NCBI GenBank assembly: GCA_963802005.1
Contig: CAWDGX010000001.1
Coordinates: forward strand, 254,421 to 318,420
From: an uncultured Ignavibacteriaceae bacterium
Lineage (GTDB): Bacteria > Bacteroidota > Ignavibacteria > Ignavibacteriales > Ignavibacteriaceae
Reading direction: 5' to 3'
Length of the DNA: 64,000 nt
Positions within the stretch are counted from its first letter, which is position 1, and the number at the start of each line of letters is the position of its first letter. The notes beneath the pieces are model-generated. The model had not been told where the DNA came from. It ran no database searches and worked only from the letters and a program-made list of their open reading frames with translations. Shown here piece by piece: positions 3,790 to 40,681 of the stretch. Position numbers and translations under genes: made by a program.

Positions 3790-5328
3790 ATGCGAACCCT
3801 TAAAATATCTCTCTTCGTTTTTATTCTTTCTATAACTATATCCGCGCAATGGTATCAACAAAATAGCGGAACCGGAACTAGTTTATATACTGTTTCGTTT
3901 TCTGATGAAGATCATGGATGGGCTGGTGGTAACTCTAATACAATTCTTAGGACAACAAATGGTGGAACGAACTGGATTGTTCAAACTAGTTCAATGTATT
4001 TAGAATTTATTTCAGATATTCAATCACTGAATGTTAATGTTGGAAAAGCTGTTGTTTGTGGTGATGTTAGCAGTAACGTAGTGGGAACAACAGACGGTGG
4101 TATTAATTGGTGGCAACTGTCATCTTTTAATAATTGGCAATTTAGTTTGTTTTTTGTTAATCCAAATATTGGATGGACCGTTGGAGATTACGGTACCATA
4201 TACAAGACTACAAATGGTGGTTTTAATTGGGTTAGTCAGAATAGTAATAGCAGTGCAACATTTAGAGATGTTTTTTTTATTGACGAAAATATCGGGATTG
4301 CAGTTGGCCAGAGTGGAACAATTCGAAGGACAACAGATGGTGGACAGAATTGGACTACACAAATAAGCGGAACAATCTCCTATCTCTTAAGTGTTTCTTT
4401 TATTGATGCAAATAGCGGCTGGATCGCTACGATTGATGGAACTATACTTAGAACTACAAATGGAGGTATTGATTGGACTTTACAATCAATTGGATCGACT
4501 GTTTCTCTTCGTAGCATATGTTTTAAGGATTTGAATAATGGAACGGTAGTTGGACTATATGGAAAAATATTTAAGACCACAAATGGTGGGGTAAACTGGT
4601 TCGAGCAGTCTAGTGGAACAACATCGAATTTGCAGTGTGTTTCATTTCTTGATTCTTTAGTCGGTACCACTGTTGGTGATAATGGAATTATCCTTCATAC
4701 AATGAACGGTGGGACGCCTGTTGAATTAACTTCCTTCACAGCGGCATTTTTAGAAAACGAAAATTCCGTAGAATTAAAATGGTCCACTGCAACAGAGACC
4801 AACAACTCCGGATTTGAGATTCTTCGTTTCACTCAGAATGACGAAGGATGGAATAAAATAGGATTTGTCCCTGGTCTCGGAACAACAGCAGAAACACAGC
4901 ATTACTCACTTACGGATAATGATGTTATGTTGGGAAAATTTCAATACAAATTAAAACAAATAGATTATGACGGCACGTTTGAGTATTCTCAAATAGTTGA
5001 AGTAGAAGTTCCATTCGTTAATGAGTTTTCACTCTACCAAAACTACCCCAACCCGTTTAACCCAACAACAAAAATAAAATACAGCATTCCAACTGTCGCT
5101 CTTCGACCTGCCTTGCCGGCAGGCAGGCAAGCTCAGAGTGACATCAAAGCCACATTAAAAGTTTACGATTTGCTTGGAAGAGAAGTTGCAACACTCGTTA
5201 ACGAAGAAAAACCAGCCGGAGAATATGAAGTTGAATTTGTCGCTTCTTCACTTGCTTCCGGGATGTATTTGTATAAACTGCAAGCAGGTAGTTTCGTTCA
5301 AACTAAGAAAATGATCCTCCTCCGATAA
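3790..5328 (+). CDS. secreted BNR/Ycf48-like beta-propeller repeat protein with T9SS C-terminal sorting domain
   Basis: 512-aa ORF with a signal peptide and about 7 repeats of the motif (R/K)TT(N/D)GGxNW. The C-terminus reads ...YQNYPNPFNPTTKIKYSIP...LKVYDLLGREVATLVNEEK...TKKMILLR (TIGR04183-type). Confidence 0.8.
   Translation: MRTLKISLFVFILSITISAQWYQQNSGTGTSLYTVSFSDEDHGWAGGNSNTILRTTNGGTNWIVQTSSMYLEFISDIQSLNVNVGKAVVCGDVSSNVVGTTDGGINWWQLSSFNNWQFSLFFVNPNIGWTVGDYGTIYKTTNGGFNWVSQNSNSSATFRDVFFIDENIGIAVGQSGTIRRTTDGGQNWTTQISGTISYLLSVSFIDANSGWIATIDGTILRTTNGGIDWTLQSIGSTVSLRSICFKDLNNGTVVGLYGKIFKTTNGGVNWFEQSSGTTSNLQCVSFLDSLVGTTVGDNGIILHTMNGGTPVELTSFTAAFLENENSVELKWSTATETNNSGFEILRFTQNDEGWNKIGFVPGLGTTAETQHYSLTDNDVMLGKFQYKLKQIDYDGTFEYSQIVEVEVPFVNEFSLYQNYPNPFNPTTKIKYSIPTVALRPALPAGRQAQSDIKATLKVYDLLGREVATLVNEEKPAGEYEVEFVASSLASGMYLYKLQAGSFVQTKKMILLR
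5095..5142. repeat. 48-bp palindromic REP/MITE-like element inserted in frame inside the T9SS sorting domain
   Basis: Sequence is GTCGCTCTTCGAC-[CTGCCTTGCCGGCAGGCAGGC]-AAGCTCAGAGTGAC. The outer arms match the elements at 5386-5412 and 5425-5453, and the centre is a nested GC-rich palindrome. It adds the peptide VALRPALPAGRQAQSD, which the other CTDs in this window lack. Confidence 0.7.
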
Positions 5329-5545: not shown

Positions 5546-7152
5546 ATGTTCAGAATATTTTTACCGATTGCTCTAATCTTTATTTATATAACTGCTTATG
5601 CGCAAAACCCACAAACTAGTAATAACAACAAACCCGATTGGGAAGGCGGTTACCCCGATGGCTGTACAACTGTTGCAGTTGGTAAGCTGGCAACTTTTGA
5701 TGGTTCATCAATGACTTCACATACGGATGACAGTCACCGAACCAGAAGCAACCTTGATATTGTTCCTCCAATGCAGCACGAAAATAATGAGCAAGTAACT
5801 CTTTACAAAAGAGAGAACGATGACACACAAAAAATGCCTGCATATAAAAAAGTCCCCACAGGAAAAATTCCTCAGATTGAATATACTAATGGTTATATCA
5901 ATACAGCCTATCCTTGCATCAACGATCAACAAGTTGCAATCGGTGAAACAACATTCGGGGGAAGAGAAGAATTAAAATCAGATGCAGGATTAATTGATTG
6001 CCAGCGTTTGTGTATGCTAATGCTTGAAAGAGGAAAAACAGCGCGGGAAGCAATAGAAATTGCAGGGGAACTATTAGAAGAATATGGATGGATTGATTAT
6101 GGTGAAATGCTGACTATCGCTGATCCGAACGAAGTCTGGGTGATTGAAATTCTTGGCGCCGGAAAAGATAAAATTGGAGCAGTCTGGGCAGCACAGAGAG
6201 TTCCTGATGAGCATATTTTTGTTGGAGCTAATGGAAGTCGCATCAGACAAATTGATACCGAAAATCCAGATTACTTTATGTTTTCAAAAAATGTTTTTGA
6301 TGTAGCTAAAGAGAACGGTTGGTGGAAACCTGAAGATGGTCCGTTTGAATTTTGTTATGCTTACGCTAATAGAAATTCTTTTTCAACAAGGAGAAGAGAA
6401 TGGCGTGTGTTCGATTTAGTTGCTCCTTCATTAAAATTAAATCCGAATTCGGAAAATTTTCCATTCTCAGTTAAACCTGACAAAAAAATAACATTAGAAA
6501 AGATGGTGGAAATTTTCTCAGATTATTATGAAGGAACAGATTTCAATTTTGTAAAAGATTTAACTGTAACAAATGACAGTGGAATGACTGTTCTCTCCCC
6601 TCTTGCAAATCCTTTTATGCCTTATGATATGAACAAGCTTTTTAAAATAAACGGTGGCTGGGGATGGCGCGGCGAAAGAACAATTGCACGCTGGTATACA
6701 ATGTATGCTACAATAATTCAGTGCAGGAGCTGGCTCCCAAATGAAATTGGCGGACTTGTTTGGTTAGCCTGGGATAATGTTGCAACTTCAATCTATGCTC
6801 CTTTTTATGCTGGTATAACAACAGTGCACAGTAACTTCTTCAACTGATGGAAGAGTAACCGGCTTCTCCAAAAACTCAGCATGGTGGGCATTTAATCGAT
6901 TAAGTACTCTCGCTGCACAACGATGGGGAGATATGAGACACGATGTTAGAGATGTGTGGGATCCCTGGCAGGCTAGATTGTTTGCAAATCAAAAGGAGAT
7001 TGAAGCAGAAGCTATGGAGCTTTGGAAAAATAACAGAGAAAAAGCGAAGGAATTATTAACAGTATACTGTTTGGATATTACAAGCGGAGATTGTTGAGCA
7101 AGCCTGGGGATTAAGTGAATTACTATGGACAAAGTACGATGAACAGTTTTAG
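5546..7152 (+). CDS. C69-family dipeptidase, split over three frames by two apparent +1 shifts (~6840 and ~7093)
   Basis: ORF 5546..6847 has a signal peptide and the N-terminal nucleophile context GCTTVAVGKLATFDGSSMTSHTDD. The conserved C-terminus continues in frame +1 (STDGRVTGFSKNSAWWAFNRLSTLAAQRWGDMRHDVRDVWDPWQ...) up to the TGA at 7095-7097. It then continues in the next frame (VEQAWGLSELLWTKYDEQF*), ending at 7152. Confidence 0.75.
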
Positions 7153-7173
7153 CTGACACCTGAAAAATAATTT

Positions 7174-9861
7174 TTAGACTAAAACTGGTGTTGGTAATAT
7201 TCCAACTCTGATTAATAATTTTGATAGTGCAAGACCATCTAGCATGGTTACATTTTCTCGAAGTTTGTCTACACTTATATTCGGGAAACTCTCTCTTGTA
7301 ATAATAAAAACTTTGTCTTGCGTCGAGCCGGATGACTCTGATAAAATATTTTCTATTGTTTTTTTATCGATCTTACTCTCAACAAAAACCCGGGCATTGA
7401 GGAAAAAGGATCTATTATTTCTTTGTGATTTACCTACAATATTAAATGAGTTTGAATTAGGCAATTCTAGAATATCAACTTCAGAAAATCCGAGTACAGC
7501 AAAAAGCCGGGAAAGAATTTTTCTAAAAGCATCAATAGTTATCTTTTTCAAAATTGCTTGAACAGCTTCAGGAGTTTGCTCATTTTTAGATTCGGTGCTA
7601 ACTGGCATTTCGAATACCCGTAGCCATTCATCTACTAAAATTAAATCTTCATATAACTTTGGCTGCATCAATTCAAAAACATTTTTATTCAAAAGATCAG
7701 TTTGCAGTAGAAGTTCCCTGATCCTTTGATCCAAAATTCCACTTGAATAATAATTACATAGATTTATGCTCTCCTTCTGCGGACTCCCTTCTTCATTAAC
7801 AAAAATATCTTCAATCTCCCAATTTGGTATCGGGCTCCACCATTGATCAAACTTTATCACGTAAGGTATATTGAAATCTGAGAATTTCAACTTGGAAATT
7901 TTAGCATCAGAAACAAATGCAACAATATCAGTCTGCGATTGGAACATTGAAATAGCTTTTTGCATATCCTCAGCAGAGAGTGATTTCGGAGCAAGAATAT
8001 GTTTTATCCCATAATTATTAAGTAATTCAGCAATTTTTTTGATGCCGAGTTTTTCATATTGTGATAGAACAAGAACTTTTTTGCCATTTTCTTTTATCAT
8101 CGATAATTGACGAATTAGTAAATCTGACTTAGGGCTTTTTGATTTTCCTGAAGCGAAGTTTGCTATCTGATTGAGCTTGTGATAGATTGTAAAAATATTC
8201 GCGTAAAATCTTAAAGGATTACCAGACTCAAGAACCCTTCTCAAATCTTTTTTACATTCAACCAGAGCAGTTTTGAATTCTGCAAGTTGATATTCATCAG
8301 TGTCACACCAAAATTCATTAAATAGAATTTTGGGTAGAGATTCTGCAATCGTTTGTTTGCTTCGTAACTGTAGCTTTTCAATTTTAACAGAAGAATTGAG
8401 TAAGGAATTTAATTCCTGATAGAGATTTCTGTCCAAAATATTCGAAGTAGCCCATAGAATTTTTGGATGAATTGCAGATAAAAATTCTTCTCTTATTTCA
8501 TTCTTTAGTAGAAGTTTATCTACTGAATCAAGGATAATACAATCAAACTTAACCAGGTTTTTATCTTCAAGTATTTTCAATCGGTAGTCATCTAATGCAG
8601 TATCAATATTTGCAATTACAATTGGTTTAGACTTATTCCACAATTCAGCCCTTTCATCATTATTCCCCTGAATAATGTGCAGTGAGAGTTCCGGACAATA
8701 CTTCTTAATCTTATCGCTCCAGCCTATTTCAATGTTTAGATGTTTTGCAAACTTCGGATTTCCTATACTCGTATCATCAGTTATAATCAACGCTGATTTG
8801 ACAACCCTGTTAGTAAATAACAATTTCAAAGCTGCAATTGCTTCTTTCTGAACATCTATTCCAAATTCATCTTGCAATAATGCAAAGTTATTCTCAACTA
8901 AAAACTTTGCACTCGCCTCCTCATACGGTTTTAATTTAGTTATATATTTGCCTGATTTTTCCCAATCAACTCTTCTTAGGTTGCTAAGTATATATCCCAA
9001 TTGCTCGCGTATGTATGAAGGGACATTTGGATCTTCTGATTTTTGTTTTGTTCCGGGTGAGCGGTAAAATAAAATGGAATCTGGTTTTGAAATGTTAAAG
9101 TTAGCGTACCACGTTTTAACCTTTGTAAGTTGGAATATTGAACTTTCAGAAACTGTTGGCTGAGTAAAAGGTGATAACGAAATCCTTTGTTCATTAAGTT
9201 TAAACACGCCAATTGACGGAACTTTTATTCGGAATATTTTTTTCGGCTCAGGCAAGACCGGTAAACTATTCTTTTCAACTTTCGTCTTTCTAAATTTATC
9301 TAATCCTATATTTTGTACTTTTACTTTCTTGGAAGAAGAAACCAAATCTTCAAAGTCCAACAGGTCTATATTAAAAATTTCCGGAACTAAATTACTCAGG
9401 TAATTAAATGTTGTGGGCACCTCAATTTTACAATCATAATTTAGCGGGGGTTTAATATTGAATTGTACTTTCCCCTTTTTTATAGCTGGATTATTAAGTA
9501 AAAATCTAACCTTTTTACTGGAGAAGCTTTTTGGTTTAAGTTCAACTTCTGAATAAATAACTCCTCTTTCAGTAGGAAGAGCAATCATAAAAAATACGGC
9601 ATTGCTCCTGATTTTTTTGAATTCACAATTCTTTAGTTCATCTGTGACATCCGGTTCTATCAGATCGAATTTGTACTCAAAAAATTCCGGGGGGACAAAT
9701 TCAAGCTGGACTTCTTCCAGATTTGCCAGGTAAGAAGTTATTTGTTCAATAGGATGGTGGTGCTGAGCCGGCTTTTTTAACCAGTTAGAAAAGTTAAAAT
9801 CTTCTGCCTCCTTAATCTTCGAAATTTTTGAGGCAACTTTGCTACGAACATTTTGAATCAT
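7174..9861 (-). CDS. SNF2-fold helicase-like protein with degenerate ATPase motifs and a C-terminal Mrr-like (restriction endonuclease fold) domain
   Basis: 895-aa intact ORF. By eye, the central region follows SNF2 N-lobe/C-lobe order: LQDEFGIDVQKEAIAAL, CIILDSVDKLL, ILWATSN, KVLVLSQYEK, YVIKFDQWWSP. The C-terminus (FRKILSRLFAVLGFSEVD...VFIITRESF...VTMLDGLALSKLLIRVGI) follows the Mrr_cat layout. The N-terminal ~300 aa have no recognisable domain. Confidence 0.6.
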   Translation of the reverse strand: MIQNVRSKVASKISKIKEAEDFNFSNWLKKPAQHHHPIEQITSYLANLEEVQLEFVPPEFFEYKFDLIEPDVTDELKNCEFKKIRSNAVFFMIALPTERGVIYSEVELKPKSFSSKKVRFLLNNPAIKKGKVQFNIKPPLNYDCKIEVPTTFNYLSNLVPEIFNIDLLDFEDLVSSSKKVKVQNIGLDKFRKTKVEKNSLPVLPEPKKIFRIKVPSIGVFKLNEQRISLSPFTQPTVSESSIFQLTKVKTWYANFNISKPDSILFYRSPGTKQKSEDPNVPSYIREQLGYILSNLRRVDWEKSGKYITKLKPYEEASAKFLVENNFALLQDEFGIDVQKEAIAALKLLFTNRVVKSALIITDDTSIGNPKFAKHLNIEIGWSDKIKKYCPELSLHIIQGNNDERAELWNKSKPIVIANIDTALDDYRLKILEDKNLVKFDCIILDSVDKLLLKNEIREEFLSAIHPKILWATSNILDRNLYQELNSLLNSSVKIEKLQLRSKQTIAESLPKILFNEFWCDTDEYQLAEFKTALVECKKDLRRVLESGNPLRFYANIFTIYHKLNQIANFASGKSKSPKSDLLIRQLSMIKENGKKVLVLSQYEKLGIKKIAELLNNYGIKHILAPKSLSAEDMQKAISMFQSQTDIVAFVSDAKISKLKFSDFNIPYVIKFDQWWSPIPNWEIEDIFVNEEGSPQKESINLCNYYSSGILDQRIRELLLQTDLLNKNVFELMQPKLYEDLILVDEWLRVFEMPVSTESKNEQTPEAVQAILKKITIDAFRKILSRLFAVLGFSEVDILELPNSNSFNIVGKSQRNNRSFFLNARVFVESKIDKKTIENILSESSGSTQDKVFIITRESFPNISVDKLRENVTMLDGLALSKLLIRVGILPTPVLV

Positions 9862-9866
9862 TTATT

Positions 9867-10400
9867 TTAGTCAGTTGACTTTTGTTGCTGCACCTGCTCG
9901 CACGCAAGTTTCAATCTTTCAAATGGTTCAAGCAGATTTCTATGTTCAGCTAATTTGTTTAGTTGATCTTTGATCGGAGCCAATTCAGTCTCGAATTTTT
10001 TAGAAGTTTCAATCATCATTTTTCCTCCGCCTGCTGTCGGGAATGCTATTGCTTCGGCTTTCGTACTTGCACGAGATTTTCCATCAGCTTCATTAAAAAC
10101 TCTGACTACTCTTATACCCTGTTTGTTGTTAGCTCCAAGAAAGAACGGATCTTTAACAATTATTAAATCTATATGTTCATTTATAGCAGCTAAAAGCGGA
10201 ACAGAAATTAATTCGACTAATATATGCTCAAGCAGGACATCTCCGTAAAGTGTTTTTTGAAATCCTGTCGGCTTAATAGGAGAAGTTACCCTAAACTCAA
10301 GTGGTTTAGTTTCTTCATCAGTCACGAGAATAGCACCGATTATTCCACCACTTTCTTCTGATGTATAAGTTTCCAAAAATGCAATCTTTGCAATTTCCAT
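9867..10400 (-). CDS. hypothetical protein, operon partner of the SNF2/Mrr-like gene
   Basis: 177-aa ORF with GGAG 7 nt upstream of the ATG. Its stop lies 5 bp before the start of the 895-aa gene. It has a strand-rich N-terminal part (GGIIGAILVTDEETKPLEFRVTSPIKP) and a helical C-terminal tail. I recognise no family. Confidence 0.6.
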   Translation of the reverse strand: MEIAKIAFLETYTSEESGGIIGAILVTDEETKPLEFRVTSPIKPTGFQKTLYGDVLLEHILVELISVPLLAAINEHIDLIIVKDPFFLGANNKQGIRVVRVFNEADGKSRASTKAEAIAFPTAGGGKMMIETSKKFETELAPIKDQLNKLAEHRNLLEPFERLKLACEQVQQQKSTD

Positions 10401-10784
10401 TATTAAACTCCAAAATGATTAGTAAATGAACTCAACCGGCCTTATTTAACATATTCAGTGCCACTTTTGACGGCAAAATCCAAACAATTGCTCTTAAGAA
10501 CTTACTGCATTATATGAGTTAAAATCACTGAATTATTTGAAGTGGAATATCAAAAAATGATTAGAAAAATGAGTTTTAAGAAAGGCAGATATTAAATTGA
10601 GTAAGATATATGTAGCATCTACTTAAAATTTTCGAATTTACATAGGTTTGATGAAGTAAAAATTCAAAATTTCCATGTAAATCTTTTACATATAAATTGG
10701 GAGAATATTGGTAAAATTTACCTTAATCGTAATAAATAAATTCAATACAAATTGATTATGATAGTCATGAAATTTGAATTTTGT

Positions 10785-12429
10785 CTATGATAATTTCATG
10801 CCCGGGAAAGTAACAACAACAGTAGTTCCTTGTCCATCAAAACTGATAACTTCAAACTTCCCTTTGTTGAGATCTATATACTTTTTTGTTAGCAAAAATC
10901 CCAAACCAGAACCTGGTTCCCTATCAGTCCCCTGCGTAGAAAACATAACTTCAGATTTAATTAAAACCTGATTCTCATCAGAAATTCCAGTTCCTTCATC
11001 AGTCACACTTATCTGAATTGCAGGAGCATTGGTTCTACTATCAATTGATTCTTCAGCAAGAATGTTGATTGTGCTTTGAGGTTCTGAAAATTTTAAGGCG
11101 TTTGAAATTATATTTCTGAATATAGTGACCAACATATCATCATCGGCAACAAGGTAATAATTTTGCTTCAAATCAACTCTGATTGAAATATTTTTTTTGT
11201 TGATTCTATACTTTAGTGAATCAATTGCTTCGTTTATTACTTCATTGATTAATATTTTTTTTGGAATGTAATCGTATTTATTCAGTTGCAGCTTGGAATA
11301 GTGAAGCAGATTGTTTGTCATTTCAAAAAGTGTATTGGACGAATCATTAATAACATTGATATATTCTTTAATATCTCTGTGGGTCAAATTTTCAAAATCG
11401 GTTCTTAAAATTTCAGCAAATCCAAGCAATGAATTAAAAGGAGATCTCAGGTCGTGTGATATTAATGAAAACAATCTGTCTTTAGATGTGTTCATCTCTT
11501 TCAGTTTGACAATCATCTCTTTACGTTCTTCTTCAACAATTTTTCGTTCTATTGCTCTTGAAATAGGGTATGATATTACATCGAGTATTTGTTGATGAGC
11601 AGGTGTATATGTGCTCGGATCTTCATAATCCTGAACAACCAAAACACCGATAGTTTTTTCTTTTATTTTTAAAGGTACACCAAGCCAAATTGGTGATTGT
11701 GGCCCAATCAATTCAATTTCACCTTTTTTTCTAAGGTCCTCGTCTTTCAGTAAGTCAACCAAAGCAGATTTACCAGTTCTCAAGTACATACTCAGTGAGC
11801 CCTTTGCCGAGTTTCTTTGATGATGAATCATGATCAACTTCATCTACAAAATATGGAAAAGTAAGCAAATCAGAGTCCCGCTTATAATAAGCAACATAGA
11901 AATTATCTGCCTTCATCAATTTTTTTATGCAGGTGTGGATAAACCGAAATAACTCACTTAAATTTTTCTCGGAGTTAGCAGCTTCCAGAATGTCTAAAAT
12001 TATTTGTTTTAATTTTCCCTCACGTAATATTTCACCAACATCGCGAAGCAAACCCATTCTTTTAGTCTTTAAATTATTCGTATCAAACAAAGTGATAGAA
12101 TTATCCTCGATCCATTTATGCTCACCATTTTTAGTTTCAATTTGGTAAACTGTTAATTTTTCTTCGATCTGAGGACCATCAGTTTTTCCATTCAAAGGAT
12201 ATTTTGTTTTGTACTCTTCGTGTTGGCTAATAATTAATTTTTCAAATTTTAACTCATTTAATTCATTGATGTTATAGCCGAACAATTTGCTAACACTTGG
12301 AGTAATGAACTTATAGTTCTGAGTATTACAATCGAAATCATAAAATACTTGATCAGAATTTGCCTGAGGCATAATTGCAGCTACTGTATTGGTGTTATCT
12401 ACCGAAATTTTTGTTTCTATCTCGTTCAA
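10785..12429 (-). CDS. sensor histidine kinase (PAS-GAF-HisKA-HATPase_c), frame broken at ~11781
   Basis: ORFs 11770..12429 (PAS plus the start of GAF) and 10785..11843 (rest of GAF, H-box FSLISHDLRSPFNSL, ATPase G-boxes DEGTGI/GSGLGF) join as ...GLTEYVL|RTGKSALV... if one base near 11781 is removed. Confidence 0.8.
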
Positions 12430-38547: not shown

Positions 38548-40681
38548 ATGGGTCAGCAATCATTTCATAGTATAGGTTCTTCTACAGACTGGATTGTAAT
38601 GGTAGTTTACTTTCTGGTGATCATGCTCTTCGGCAGTTACTTTGGTAAATACAACCGCAGTACAAAAGATTTTTTCTTCGGTGGTAGAAGATTTGCCTGG
38701 TGGCTAATTGCTTTTTCCATTGTTGCAACCGGTGTAGGGAGTCACAGCTTTGTTAAATATGCAGCCAAAGGTTTTGAGCATGGAATTTCCTCAACTATGA
38801 CTTACATAAATGATTGGTTTTTTATTCCTTTCTTTTTCTTTGGATGGTTGCCAATTATTGTCTATTCCAAAATAAGATCCATACCAGAATATTTTGAAAA
38901 ACGTTTTAGTCCATCAGCACGGTTTCTTGCAACTCTTTTACTTCTGTTTTATATGATCGGATACATTGGAATTGGATTTTTAACACTTGGTAAAGCTGCT
39001 TTACCTTTGCTTCCTGAAAGCTTTGAACTTTTTGGAATGCAATTTCAGAATACACTTATGGGAGTGATAATTGTAATTGCAATTATTACAGGAATCTACA
39101 TTACTTTTGGTGGGCAAACTGCTGTAATCTTCACTGATCTTATGCAAGGATTTATTCTTCTATTTGCAGGTTTACTTCTTTTCTTTCTCGGATTAAGTTA
39201 TGTCGGTGGATTCGACATTTTCTGGAATTTGTTACCCACAGCATGGAAATTACCCTTAGCTCAATTTAACGAACCATCGAGTTTTAACTTTGTTGGAATA
39301 TTCTGGCAGGATGGTGTTGCAGGTTCTATTGGATTCCTGTTTCTTAACATGGGATTAATAATGCGCTTCATGGCAACAAAAAGTGTTGATGAGGGAAGAA
39401 AGGCTGCAGCATTTAACGTTTTGTTCATGCTTCCTATTTCAGCAATTGTGGTTGGAAATGCTGGATGGATAGGCAAGGCGATTTCAATTATTCAACCGGA
39501 TGTAGTTCCACCTAATACCAATCCTGATCAGATTTTTGTTGTTGTTGCAAATATAGTCTCATTACCAGGTGTTTTCGGATTTATTATGGCGGCGCTCACT
39601 GCTGCATTAATGTCAACTGTAGATACATTAATTAATGCAACAGCTGCAATTTATATTAATGATGTTCACCGACCTATAAAAGTATGGCTTAAAAAATACG
39701 ATGAAGATGCACGTAGTGAGGACAGACATGAATTGGTTGCTGCAAGATTTTCTTCAGTTGCAATTACGATTCTAGGTGTTTTAGCAGTTCTGGTTTTCAG
39801 AGATTTTCCAACAGTGTATGAAGCACATGGATTCTTTCATTCAACACTCACACCTCCACTTGTTGTGGCCGTTTTCCTTGGAATTTTTTGGCGAAAATTT
39901 ACACCAGCAGCAGTCATCACTTCATTTCTGGGTGGAGTTATATTAATGATTCTGGGAGCCAACTATCCGGGGATTTTAATTGCTCCGTTTGATCATGGAA
40001 TTCAGATGGACCCAAATCATCCTTACTCTTATATAAGAGCCTTATATAATCTTGTTGTTTGTTCGGGTGTTGCAGTGATTGCTGTATTTACTACTGGATT
40101 ACAGAAAAAAATCGTAAGTACCATTAAAGCACAAGCGAATGCTAAGTTCATCATGTATTTTTTAATTTCACTTGCTGCTGTCATATTTGTAGGACTTGTT
40201 TTCAGTTCTTCTATTATTAACACTTCATTCAGAGTCTCTCCCCGAAATAGCATTGATGCTCTGCTTAGCAATGATTATGTCAGGTATAGTCGCCATTTCA
40301 ACCACTTACTATGGTAAATATGATGAGGCGACTCAAACTAATGGTTTAACAGCCTGGTCAATTGCACAAGCAAAAGAAATGTTCAAGGGCAAAAAAATAA
40401 ATGATGCTGAAGGAGATAAGGTAACAGTCAATTGGAAATTAAAAGAAGGTGATGAAGATACGGTTAACTTTTCTACGGCAGATATGGCAAAAATGAAAGC
40501 TAATATTGGCGACCTTGTTTACCTATGCGATAAGCGAAAGTGGCTTGGTGGTTTGAAATCAATTCATTCAGTCTTTGGTAATACTCATAATGAGGATGGC
40601 ATAGTATATGTGACCAAAGATCACATCGATCAAGGACAATTTGTTACTGGTAAATTACTTTTAGCCGAAAAAGAAATGTAG
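38548..40681 (+). CDS. sodium:solute symporter family transporter with soluble C-terminal extension, frame broken at ~40.2 kb
   Basis: ATG at 38548 (MGQQSFHSIGSSTDWIVMVVYF...); the track start at 38527 overlaps the upstream ORF. The polytopic SSF core occupies ORF 38527..40317. ORF 40196..40681 supplies a last TM helix and a ~120-aa soluble tail in frame +1. Confidence 0.75.

Follow-up and report, generated by a model that had tools for sequence, protein, structure and literature searches.

The window, a 64,000-nucleotide stretch of a contig from an uncultured Ignavibacteriaceae bacterium, carries a two-gene operon that is conserved across Ignavibacteria. The operon encodes a small protein whose model shows an RNase H-like fold of the Endonuclease V (EndoV)/PIWI type, followed by a large SNF2-Mrr protein in which alignments show all ATP-binding and ATP-hydrolysis residues to be replaced in the window's lineage. 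The Ignavibacteria pair forms a monophyletic, derived branch of a wider module, apparently passed on by vertical inheritance, and we cautiously favor its interpretation as an exapted, ATP-independent nucleic-acid-binding complex that arose from an ancestral defense-type translocase-nuclease.

The gene pair and its upstream elements

A reading of the window from its sequence alone had described two ORFs separated by 5 bp, the larger one intact although neighboring genes are frame-broken. Both ORFs exist exactly at the coordinates and lengths given there (Table 1), with 5 nt between the stop codon of the small gene and the ATG of the large gene, and frameshifts are present in the genes for a peptidase C69 (two, at ~6830 and ~7078) and a histidine kinase (one, at ~11795). 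The flanking genes are intact in loci L001–L003, which indicates that the frameshifts are local to the window; they may be assembly errors. Among 80 loci from GTDB species representatives of Ignavibacteria, the two genes are adjacent in every testable case with a gap of 0–17 nt, a positive outcome for the proposed test of whether orthologues co-occur as neighbors. The gene order FeoAB-(HK)-pair-peptidase C69 is common to loci with a large-protein identity of 48–70%, and no defense genes were found around the pair in the shared-synteny Ignavibacteria loci compared. In all, 184 species representatives, among them Ignavibacterium album, were confirmed to have the small protein, which is 57–100% identical across the class; core-gene status rests on these representatives together with synteny common to part of the class.

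Purifying selection, which the sequence-only reading had proposed for a pseudo-enzyme, is confirmed for both genes by dN/dS estimates of 0.02–0.13 against five to eight relatives (0.02–0.05 for the small gene and 0.07–0.13 for the large gene). By part of the large gene, the values are 0.11–0.22 for the N-terminal region, 0.06–0.12 for SNF2 lobe 1 and 0.05–0.14 for the Mrr-like domain, and they stay below 0.27 in every domain wherever dS is estimable. Neither the window nor any complete locus from about 70 species shows an interruption of the 2.7-kb large ORF, over 100 columns of its product stay invariant at identities as low as 38%, and the two genes are correlated in their pairwise identities (Spearman 0.78–0.82).

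Table 1 Features of the locus (positions in the window).
Feature	Position (nt)	Strand	Remark
Small gene, 177 aa	9867-10400	-	Intact ORF, first of pair
Large gene, 895 aa	7174-9861	-	Intact ORF, second of pair
N-terminal region (aa 1-305)	8947..9861	-	No fold assigned; AF2 pLDDT <45 for aa 1-297
SNF2 lobe 1 (aa ~310-500)	8362..8934	-	Degenerate motifs I, II, III
Motif I DEFGIDVQ (aa 331-338)	8848-8871	-	Walker A replaced
Motif II ILDSVD (aa 443-448)	8518-8535	-	D-S-V-D opposite DEAQ/DEAH (alignment to 1z63 and 5jxr)
Motif III LWATS (W-A-T-S), lobe 1		-	Degenerate
SNF2 helical insertion and lobe 2 (aa ~501-760)	7582..8361	-	Profile alignment to 1z63/1z5z
Motif IV VLVLSQY, lobe 2		-	Kept
Motif V, KISKLKF opposite GGFGINL, lobe 2		-	Glycines lost
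FDQWWSP, lobe 2		-	Kept
Motif VI WEIEDIFVNE (aa 681-690)	7792-7821	-	Both arginine fingers lost
Mrr_cat-like domain (aa 772-883)	7213..7548	-	Pfam Mrr_cat match; catalytic positions substituted
Sigma-54-type -24/-12 promoter element TGGCAC-TGAAT-ATGT	10449..10463	-	Consensus match
Conserved block CGGTTGAGT	10430..10438	-	Just 3' of -12 element, near predicted transcription start
Shine-Dalgarno-like GGAG	10408..10411	-	8-11 nt before small gene's ATG; read from sequence

Upstream of the small gene lies a sigma-54-type promoter element, with the T of TGGCA 63 nt before the ATG in the window. The pattern TGGCAY-N5-[AT]TG occurs 60–86 nt upstream in 70 of 77 Ignavibacteria loci, with one case at 116 nt, against a background rate of 0.011 per 200 nt, and it is retained although the DNA around it differs between clades. 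Its -12 part mostly reads TG[T/A], against TGC in the canonical site; one locus, L004, has the perfect consensus TGGCAC-N5-TTGCT. From this element we infer RpoN dependence of the pair. The sequence and literature covered yielded nothing on RpoN or an activator. Closer to the gene, the block CGGTTGAGT is kept in the clade of the window and its close relatives (L006–L019, L028, L029) and is replaced by GGTGGTA in a neighboring clade, and the GGAG is conserved at the same position across the upstream regions compared.

Folds and motifs of the two proteins

The SNF2 fold proposed for the large protein is supported by a Foldseek match of its model to SNF2 remodelers (E ~1e-13) and by matches of the family profile to SsoRad54, the Sulfolobus SNF2/Rad54 core 1z63 (E 3.5e-10), and to 1z5z (1.6e-9); the Pfam Helicase_C match is weak. 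Motif readings were checked by residue-level profile alignment to 1z63 and in a 71-sequence family alignment, and these agree with the sequence-only reading that motifs I, II, III, V and VI are degenerate while motif IV and FDQWWSP are kept. At motif VI, for example, E-I-E-D-I-F stands opposite QATDRVYRIGQ of 1z63. The substitutions are themselves conserved in relatives, which keep LLQDEFGID, FDCIILD and NWELED, and the large protein has neither an intact Walker A/B nor arginine fingers at any other place. The sole regex match for a relocated Walker A, ANFASGKS at 567–574, is located in the helix-loop-helix linker before lobe 2 and is matched by 6 of 71 family members, and for this reason it is regarded as a chance match.

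The isolated C-terminal domain matches Pfam Mrr_cat at 25.3 bits (cutoff 21; E 1.8e-5; model positions 2–115 of 115) and the full-length protein at 20.8 bits. Mrr_cat is also matched by 12 of 16 diverse family members (best 4.6e-7), and the large-protein family contains one NA-iREase1 match. By the domain layout, the catalytic D reads N (SFNIVG) and QxK reads N-A-R, as had been described, where canonical relatives have DGGIDI...VQCK at the aligned positions. The AlphaFold, Foldseek and Pfam/HMMER runs thus all support a degenerate SNF2-Mrr protein. The N-terminal region is lineage-specific: it opens with a family-invariant motif of ~30 aa (V5, R6, K8, A10, S14, D21, F22, W27, L28, P31) and gives no significant match when profiles are compared with the N-termini of canonical relatives. 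With its 300 aa, this region makes up a third of the large protein and could carry an unrecognized activity.

The small protein yields an AF2 model with a pLDDT of 85.6 and a pTM of 0.84. Its best 14 Foldseek matches in the PDB are all Endonuclease V (E 3e-6 to 3e-5; probability 1.0 at 3e-6), with near-full-length coverage and a TMq of up to 0.69 (3goc), followed by the PIWI domains of long and short pAgo, including SPARTA, and then NurA; EndoV is again the best match in a viral structure library. In the model, strands span residues 6–13, 20–27, 33–38, 79–82 and 97–103, with a long helix (46–72) between the third and fourth, and a helical hairpin (134–176) forms the C-terminus. The sequence-only reading had considered this partner unassignable, which holds for sequence families (no matches in Pfam, NCBIfam, PADLOC or PHROGs) but not for the fold. 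Comparison to EndoV by hhalign is non-significant (probability 0.1%), and none of the motifs that mark EndoV (PYIPG, FRE and DG.G..HPR) is present.

The small-protein family instead has its own signature, comprising G22, L25, T27-D28, P33, E35-F36-R37, T39, P44, Q48, L51-Y52-G53 and E158-P-F-x-R162. On strand 1, position 10 is E in all 119 Ignavibacteria-type proteins and S/A/D/G/T/C elsewhere in the family; E58, H59, E63, D78 and D84 are also fixed in Ignavibacteria, with D84 replaced by N in 3 of the 119. Four of these (E10, E58, E63 and D84) are acidic and occupy positions that are canonical for RNase H, and their fixation suggests that the complex may not be wholly non-catalytic. However, the RNase H-type strand-1 residue is not conserved across the wider family, which argues for an ancestral small subunit that bound or sensed rather than cleaved.

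The wider module and its likeness to known systems

The sequence-only reading had found that a pseudo-enzyme paired with a small protein matches no known system. The pair is, however, no orphan but a degenerate branch of a widespread module. The small-protein family comprises 1,143 clusters at 50% identity, nearly all 165–200 aa long with end-to-end matches, from hosts that include Cyanobacteria, Armatimonadota and unassigned metagenomic lineages. In the lineages just named, the small gene directly precedes a fully canonical SNF2 ATPase (DEMGTGKT, DEAQ, SGTP, GGVGLTL and QAEDRVHRPGQ, with DGGIDI...VQCK at the Mrr positions) with swappable effectors: a fused Mrr, a fused PNP_UDP_1 phosphorylase, none, or a separate Mrr/HNH. 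Canonical copies often lie among known defense genes; their neighbors include McrBC, a BrxC/PglY-like protein and GIY-YIG (L092), Mrr_N-Mrr_cat, HNH and a transposase (L091), ParE-like and SocA toxin-antitoxin domains (L089 and L093) and a PDC-S15 candidate (L087). A rooted tree with motif states shows that decay within Ignavibacteria was stepwise. Basal clades keep GTGKT or GLGKK, all non-basal clades combine a broken P-loop with a sigma-54-type element ~65 nt upstream, an element that every P-loop-degenerate lineage has, and Walker B decay (DE to DD to DS) is a later step seen only in the window's sub-clade.

PADLOC returned no matches for either protein of the pair beyond a marginal DpdE match of the large protein (E 0.003), in keeping with the sequence-only reading, and a search of viral contigs found no copies of the pair. 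Type I Zorya ZorD has the same domain order as the large protein (N-terminal region, SNF2 core, Mrr-type nuclease) and gives canonical relatives their best PADLOC match (E 2e-76 and 5e-61, in the helicase core). However, a canonical relative scores 168 bits against NCBIfam ZorD, where the cutoff is 1500, and the window protein has no ZorD match and, judging from its motifs, is catalytically dead. ZorA, ZorB and ZorC are all missing near the pair, and a small EndoV-fold partner is not among the listed Zorya components (ZorA-D). The SNF2 core is likewise common to DISARM DrmD, Dpd DpdE, RapA/HepA and other bacterial SNF2 proteins; canonical relatives match DpdE and DrmD, and L087 gives a weak RapA match, yet all these scores are far below the family cutoffs and none of DrmABC or DpdA-K is present with the pair.

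EndoV is twice the size of the small protein and without detectable sequence similarity to it. The most conserved loop of the small protein follows strand 3, the site of the EndoV lesion-recognition wedge, whereas the catalytic Asp of EndoV on strand 1 is unconserved across the family, which has in its place TD..KP.EFR.T.P..P...Q..LYG, EPFxR and the C-terminal hairpin. SPARTA/SPARDA, which are weaker structural matches than EndoV, resemble the pair in that an inactive RNase H-fold protein partners an effector-bearing protein with swappable effectors; the pair, however, has no MID or APAZ domain and no sign of guide binding, and its partner is a SNF2 ATPase rather than a TIR or nuclease-APAZ protein. 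PIWI-RE systems consist of three genes (PIWI-RE, a helicase and an REase-fold nuclease) and offer a lead, in that they may follow the same logic as the pair by bringing together a PIWI-like protein of the RNase H fold, a helicase and a nuclease of the restriction-endonuclease fold. The PIWI-RE helicase belongs to the DinG type, and PIWI-RE itself is large and has many domains.

Possible roles of the Ignavibacteria pair

A fundamental question is what such a complex would do. One hypothesis is that it still acts against phages, such that the dead SNF2 and Mrr domains only sense or scaffold invader DNA and the N-terminal 300 aa or the small subunit delivers a toxic or abortive output. The module's relatives adjoin known defense genes and swap effectors, the canonical large protein has its closest catalogued relatives in ZorD, DpdE and DrmD, and inactive PIWI/REase domains serve as sensors in known systems (compare the short pAgo matches and the NA-iREase1 match). 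Nevertheless, we consider this unlikely. Defense genes normally turn over and diversify, whereas the Ignavibacteria branch is monophyletic, co-evolving and syntenic among housekeeping genes, with a small protein conserved class-wide against more than 1,000 clusters for the rest of the family. The marginal PADLOC result and the viral contigs without copies also argue against defense, as does the sigma-54-type promoter control, a dedicated feature that is not known from described defense systems.

Somewhat less probable still is a catalytic small subunit, which in Ignavibacteria would have become, or stayed, an active metal-dependent nuclease (E10, E58/E63, D84) that the dead SNF2-Mrr protein would target or regulate in sigma-54-induced repair or RNA-DNA-hybrid processing. 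The EndoV fold match of the model over almost the whole length, the enzyme-like dN/dS and the fixed residues, with E10 falling at catalytic D35 of E. coli EndoV in an uncomputed placement by eye, would favor such an enzyme; the missing EndoV motifs and sequence similarity and the replacement of D84 in three proteins speak against it, and a protein-protein interface explains the fixed residues equally well. It is far harder to view the large gene as a remnant on its way to becoming a pseudogene, carried by a functional small gene in an eroding region. The three frameshifts in two flanking genes and the loss of all catalytic motifs would suggest this, but the intact ORFs, low dN/dS and invariant columns effectively refute it, and both the conserved replacement motifs and the intact flanking genes of L001–L003 are at odds with it.

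The fold, motif, neighbor and selection evidence supports the overall sequence-only reading of a degenerate SNF2-Mrr protein with a conserved partner, and we give slightly better than even chances to an exapted, ATP-independent nucleic-acid-binding complex. In this model, the ancestral translocase-nuclease would no longer burn ATP or cut DNA. The small subunit would provide an EndoV-like binding face, made up of the beginning of helix 1 and the conserved loop that follows strand 3, at the place of the PYIPG wedge in EndoV. DNA-gripping surfaces would come from the dead SNF2 lobes and Mrr domain, and an enhancer-binding protein would gate expression through sigma-54. The nucleoid or remodeling factor raised earlier as an alternative fits the Ignavibacteria branch better than defense does, although the dead motifs exclude classic ATP-driven remodeling. 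We hypothesize that the role of the complex in Ignavibacteria is probably chromosomal, in marking, occluding or regulating a structure made of DNA or RNA-DNA, with immunity less likely.

An inactivated SNF2-Mrr protein and its small partner

The sequence-only reading described a two-gene operon, and both ORFs, which lie on the minus strand, are indeed intact, with 5 nt in the window sequence separating the stop codon of the small gene from the ATG of the large gene. Its description of the neighbours as frame-broken also holds, as the genes for peptidase C69 and for a histidine kinase are both split when their intact orthologues from a related locus (L001) are used as queries. Because both orthologues are unbroken in three related genomes (L001-L003), the breaks are local, and they may be real pseudogenes or assembly indels. 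The pair is also neighboured by FeoAB in the window. A Rfam scan of positions 6500-11500 gave chance snoRNA-like matches only, and therefore no known RNA element is found there; sigma-70 and terminator scans gave signal at shuffle level. At lower window coordinates lies a gene for a 512-aa secreted protein whose Por/T9SS-type sorting tail fits a Bacteroidota/Ignavibacteria origin of the window.

Features of the window and of related loci
Feature	Position	Strand	Remarks
512-aa secreted protein	3790-5328	+	BNR/Sortilin-like repeats, C-terminal Por/T9SS-type sorting tail; by eye, translation only
Peptidase C69 gene	5546-7149	+	split into three frames, broken at about 6826-6834 and 7078
Large gene	7174-9861	-	895 aa
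NYLSNLVPEIF	~9375-9410	-	aa ~151-163; compare SDNLLLIYPEIF and SENLLPVFPSVF in L089, L090 N-termini
N-terminal ~30-aa motif VRSKVASKISKI.EA.DFNFSNWLKKP	9772-9861	-	aa 1-30 of large protein
Small gene	9867-10400	-	177 aa
Block CGGTTGAGT	10430-10438	-	directly downstream of -12 element
-24/-12-type element TGGCAC-TGAAT-ATGT (TGGCACTGAATATGT)	10449-10463	-	~65 nt upstream of small gene
GAF-HisKA-HATPase_c histidine kinase gene	10785-12429	-	over two frames; break near 11782-11807
Second sigma-54-like match TGGCATAGTATATGT	40597-40611	+	inside 161-aa ORF
Metallo-beta-lactamase-fold gene	L001:1725-2441; L002:1747-2460; L003:2972-3688		Pfam match Anti-Pycsar_Apyc1
184-aa gene	L089:11425-11979 (7.9-Mb genome); L093:11393-11947 (Nostoc sp. 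S4)		no Pfam match; after SNF2-PNP_UDP_1 gene
Module and defence neighbours	L092:1-7715

Single-sequence searches with the large protein are weak but agree in direction: full-length Pfam matches to Mrr_cat (E 4e-4, 20.8 bits, just under the cutoff), Helicase_C (E 0.015) and SNF2-rel_dom (E 0.14) are all sub-threshold and PADLOC and NCBIfam return no meaningful match. However, a family profile (A1) built from 26 sequences of the large protein finds 1z63, the Sulfolobus SNF2/Rad54 core, at E 3.5e-10, followed by ISWI, INO80 and Fun30 (E 2e-9 to 1e-5). In the AlphaFold model, which is confident for residues ~310-890 and not for 1-297, the best 50 Foldseek matches by E-value (9e-14 to 1e-10) are without exception SNF2 remodellers or SsoRad54. 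Agreement between the profile and structure searches settles the fold as SNF2, with two RecA-like lobes and the SNF2-specific helical insertions.

Residue-level HMM alignment to SNF2 structures bears out the motif assignments that had been made by eye. Walker A and Walker B are absent, and both arginine fingers are missing because motif VI aligns to E-I-E-D-I-F-V-N; no DR..R or R.GQ pattern occurs anywhere in the large protein. The search for a Walker A elsewhere in the protein yielded nothing genuine. Its one regex match, ANFASGKS at residues 567-574, was considered as a relocated P-loop and rejected as a chance match, since it lies in the helix-loop-helix linker before lobe 2 and the pattern is present there in no more than 6 of 71 relatives.

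SNF2 motifs of the large protein
Motif	Canonical	Window	Basis
I (Walker A)	GxGK[ST]	DEFGIDVQ
II (Walker B)	DEAQ / DEAH	D-S-V-D	HMM alignment
V	GGFGINL	K-I-S-K-L-K-F	HMM alignment
FDxWWNP block	FDRWWNP	FDQWWSP	HMM alignment
VI	QATDRVYRIGQ	E-I-E-D-I-F-V-N	HMM alignment

The isolated C-terminal domain matches Pfam Mrr_cat (PF04471) at 25.3 bits, above the gathering score of 21, over model positions 2-115 of 115, and the same model picks up 12 of 16 diverse family members. A profile of this domain searched against PDB sequences found designed proteins only, and for this reason the Mrr assignment rests on Pfam. Catalytic residues were mapped from the family alignment and the domain layout (SFN-IVG and N-A-R against GGID-I and Q-C-K), and where canonical relatives, the module members outside Ignavibacteria that keep all SNF2 catalytic motifs, read DGGIDI...VQCK, the window reads NSNSFNIVG...FLNARV, such that the catalytic Asp and the (E/Q)xK are replaced. 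The motif alignment together with an Mrr_cat match that has lost its catalytic residues supports the description of the protein as a doubly inactivated helicase-nuclease. Annotation pipelines would name it a helicase or a restriction endonuclease, and caution is warranted as it is very likely neither.

The N-terminal ~30-aa motif is kept in all Ignavibacteria clades, those retaining Walker A included, is unrecognisable in canonical relatives, and is a candidate docking peptide. A profile of the N-terminal 305 residues gives no significant match to canonical relatives; a weak D[NY]L...PE[IV]F motif, seen by eye and not statistically significant, is common to the window and the N-termini of cyanobacterial relatives.

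How, then, should the 177-aa partner be classified? It had been called unassignable, and it has no match in Pfam, NCBIfam, PADLOC or PHROGs, nor does its profile match any PDB sequence. However, its AlphaFold model (pLDDT 85.6, pTM 0.84), in which a three-stranded meander is followed by a long helix, two strand-helix units and a C-terminal helical hairpin, retrieves Endonuclease V (EndoV) from the PDB at Foldseek ranks 1-14 (E 3e-6 to 3e-5, probability 1.0) and again at ranks 16-17, including 3goc (TMq 0.69, rmsd 4.4 over 206 columns). Later ranks are mostly PIWI of long and short Argonautes, and NurA, and the top match in a viral structure library is again EndoV. As modelled, the small protein is assignable at the fold level to the EndoV/PIWI branch of RNase H-like proteins. 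An hhalign comparison with the E. coli EndoV sequence (100% identical to 4xpu) is non-significant (probability 0.1%) and, as the PDB profile search is null as well, the link to EndoV is one of fold similarity. Membership of the EndoV sequence family (PF04493) was rejected on the hhalign result and the lack of a Pfam or NCBIfam match, and the small protein does not show the set of EndoV catalytic D/E/D(H) residues with the PYIPG wedge.

A residue comparison of 119 Ignavibacteria-type small proteins with 224 other family members identified as universal G22, L25, T27-D28, P33, E35-F36-R37, T39, P44, Q48, L51-Y52-G53 and E158-P-F-x-R162. At the strand-1 position, equated by eye with the EndoV catalytic Asp, E occurs only in Ignavibacteria, and the 224 others carry S/A/D/G/T/C, with D in 14%. 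This variation indicates that a canonical RNase H-type site is not ancestral. By secondary-structure order rather than superposition, a conserved loop after strand 3 sits where EndoV has its wedge, a position that suggests a face for binding nucleic acid or a partner. The Ignavibacteria proteins carry E10, E58, H59, E63 and D78 without exception (119/119) and D84 almost always (116/119), and this lineage may thus have gained a metal site of its own.

Conservation, stepwise motif loss and a sigma-54-type element in Ignavibacteria

The large protein has 62 close homologues, mostly full-length and 38-98% identical, the few with a source name being Ignavibacteria-type MAGs. The small protein has 482, the best 120 of which are 66-99% identical, and a pattern scan found the small gene in 184 GTDB species representatives. 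The 80 of these that are listed are Ignavibacteria, including Ignavibacterium album, bar a few Bacteroidetes or 'bacterium' contigs and one short contig labelled Gammaproteobacteria. That contig (L020, JAHIYS010000144.1, 3.4 kb) carries an Ignavibacteria-type small gene (81% identical) and is binned as 'Gammaproteobacteria bacterium', most likely a binning error. The sequence-only reading asked whether the two genes co-occur as neighbours in relatives, and they are adjacent in every listed locus that extends far enough downstream. There the small gene is succeeded, at a gap of 0-17 nt, by an ORF of ~870-927 aa, the exceptions being four loci with shorter ORFs, one of them at a 28-nt gap; in I. 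album-type loci the large ORF has 807 aa after start trimming.

The order FeoAB-(HK)-pair-peptidase C69 is common to relatives at 48-70% large-protein identity (L001-L003), and the pair occupies other housekeeping contexts in two more distant lineages. Within the conserved Fur-FeoAB neighbourhood also sits the metallo-beta-lactamase-fold gene matching Anti-Pycsar_Apyc1, which is probably a housekeeping MBL hydrolase and not an anti-defence gene. Purifying selection on the pseudo-enzyme, which the earlier reading had raised, is evident from dN/dS ratios of 0.07-0.13 for the large gene and 0.02-0.05 for the small gene, with values <0.27 in every domain with estimable dS, the dead ATPase lobes and dead Mrr domain included. 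Pairwise identities within Ignavibacteria span 57-100% for the small and 21-100% for the large protein, and the two correlate (Spearman 0.78-0.82).

A motif table of 71 sequences and a neighbour-joining tree, for which both proteins were concatenated and five canonical relatives served as the root, resolve the order in which the motifs decayed (L005 and L071, both GMGKS, are in the motif table and absent from the tree). Ignavibacteria form one clade, whose basal clades keep G[TLM]GK[TSK] as canonical relatives do. The first-branching clade has GTGKT in L080, L081 and L083 and GLGKK in L079, L082 and L084, and one motif-VI arginine survives in L081 (WQAEERI). The P-loop is broken in all other lineages, typically as G-[YSI]-[DE]-K-[FQK], and in the window's clade the lysine is also gone (GIDVQ). 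Walker B reads DE in most clades, DD in I. album and the near-window clades L012/L014 and L016/L017, and DS is confined to the window's sub-clade. No Ignavibacteria clade has a canonical Mrr catalytic pair, and the remnants of the pair differ, with a D in SFDI[ST]G and a QxK in I. album's LQAKG.

Upstream of the small gene, the element at 10449-10463 resembles a sigma-54 promoter in sequence and agrees exactly with its -24/-12 spacing, the consensus being TGGCAC-N5-TTGC with GG at -24 and G(C) at -12. The pattern TGGCAY-N5-[AT]TG recurs in 70 of 77 loci, 60-86 nt upstream of the small gene (116 nt in one case), and its background rate is 0.011 per 200 nt; the flanking DNA differs between clades. 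At -12, T or A often stands in place of C across loci, and the consensus is perfect in one locus (L004, TGGCAC-N5-TTGCT). The seven loci without the element are exactly the Walker-A-retaining lineages, and three of them have a weaker CGGCAT-N5-TTGT further upstream. For this reason, the element can be said to arise together with P-loop loss in the tree. Its match to the consensus suggests RpoN dependence; a regex search of ~0.75 Mb of sequence found no RpoN box or GAFTGA/ESELFGH activator signature, and we found no literature on sigma-54/RpoN in Ignavibacteria. The block CGGTTGAGT is shared by the window's clade and its neighbours, another clade having GGTGGTA instead, and it may belong to the transcription start or the 5' UTR. 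The match at 40597-40611 is uninformative because it lies inside an ORF and 455 nt upstream of the next gene, which encodes 631 aa, and it is probably due to chance.

An active sister module with interchangeable effectors

An exhaustive profile search places the small protein in a large family, counting 1,143 clusters (50% identity) at E<=1e-3, of which 355 reach E<=1e-10. Almost all are 165-200 aa long and matched end to end, and the named members come from Cyanobacteria (Microcoleus, Nostoc, Komarekiella) and Armatimonadota. In 7/7 readable contexts the gene is directly followed by one for an SNF2 protein with strongly scoring domains. The SNF2 protein is fused to Mrr_cat in L086 and L087/L088 and to PNP_UDP_1 in L089 and L093; it stands alone in L090 and L092, and in L091 it is accompanied by a divergently encoded Mrr_N-Mrr_cat and by an HNH gene. 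All motifs of the L087 protein are canonical (DEMGTGKT, DEAQ, SGTP, GGVGLTL, QAEDRVHRPGQ, DGGIDI...VQCK), motifs I, II and VI are retained in L089 and L091, and motifs I and II in L090, the C-terminus of which is QNAEDRAHRIGQ. In L089 and L093 a 184-aa gene, which may be a third component of the PNP_UDP_1 subtype, comes next, with alanyl-tRNA synthetase nearby.

The distribution of these canonical relatives outside Ignavibacteria is patchy and island-associated, with rapid turnover. Their neighbours include a transposase, ParE-like and SocA_Panacea toxin-antitoxin domains and the PADLOC candidate PDC-S15, and the L092 copy adjoins McrB (EVE-AAA_5), McrC, a BrxC/PglY-like DUF6079 protein and GIY-YIG in a textbook defence island. 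Swapped effectors and defence-gene neighbours would, by association, make the canonical module a plausible and apparently undescribed defence system. The closest catalogued relatives of its large protein are ZorD, DpdE and DrmD, with matches confined to the helicase core and far under the NCBIfam equivalog cutoffs; for Zorya type I, the ZorD score of a canonical relative is 168 bits against a cutoff of 1500. The window protein has no ZorD match in PADLOC or NCBIfam, and no ZorA, ZorB or ZorC is found among its neighbours. Scores and context thus rule out membership of ZorD, DrmD, DpdE or RapA. Searches of viral contigs with the Ignavibacteria profile and one canonical small protein found no relatives, and we found no literature describing an EndoV-fold/SNF2 module, an SNF2-Mrr-EndoV anti-phage system or an Ignavibacteria SNF2 protein.

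Proposed exaptation and its rivals

We infer that the Ignavibacteria branch was exapted from the module, and that in the cell the pair would now bind nucleic acids as an ATP-independent complex controlled through sigma-54. Given the replaced motifs, the large gene might be read as a decaying pseudogene or relic, yet dN/dS and ORF integrity oppose this so strongly that it is effectively refuted. One alternative is that the pair still serves defence with another output. SNF2-nuclease fusions are typical of defence, and the sister module has defence-gene neighbours. However, the patchy, island-linked distribution and fast turnover that mark defence genes are not seen in the Ignavibacteria branch, whose two genes form a single clade, co-evolve and keep their synteny among housekeeping genes, and we consider continued defence unlikely.

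It is a little less probable still that catalysis has moved to the small subunit, for which the invariant acidic residues would be the candidates and against which stands the absence of the EndoV signature motifs. A fuller and equally doubtful scenario is that the Ignavibacteria ancestor captured, a single time, a widespread and uncatalogued defence-type module of EndoV-fold sensor, SNF2 motor and swappable effector, which was rewired to a housekeeping function under sigma-54, after which motor and nuclease were switched off stepwise while the small subunit acquired an acidic site (E10, E58/E63, D84), such that catalysis migrated within the complex. The components are of known kinds (SNF2, Mrr, RNase H fold), whereas the small-protein family, its obligate SNF2 pairing and the conserved Ignavibacteria branch, sigma-54-associated and inactivated in steps, appear undescribed in the libraries and literature searched.

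Taken as a whole, the sequence-only reading is supported, and the follow-up supplements it with where the pair comes from, how it evolved and a handle on its regulation. The small protein represents a large family that lacks a Pfam, NCBIfam, PADLOC or PHROGs model and is the obligate neighbour of SNF2 ATPases with interchangeable effectors, which makes the canonical module a tangible candidate anti-phage system of a new kind. One bacterial class offers a clean natural series of probable exaptation, in which the successive losses can be ordered, Walker A going first and Walker B, the arginine fingers and the nuclease residues after it, with strong purifying selection persisting through motif loss and a sigma-54-type motif marking the P-loop-degenerate lineages. 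Since Ignavibacterium album, which has both genes, can be cultured, the role of a dead SNF2 motor in bacteria is directly addressable.
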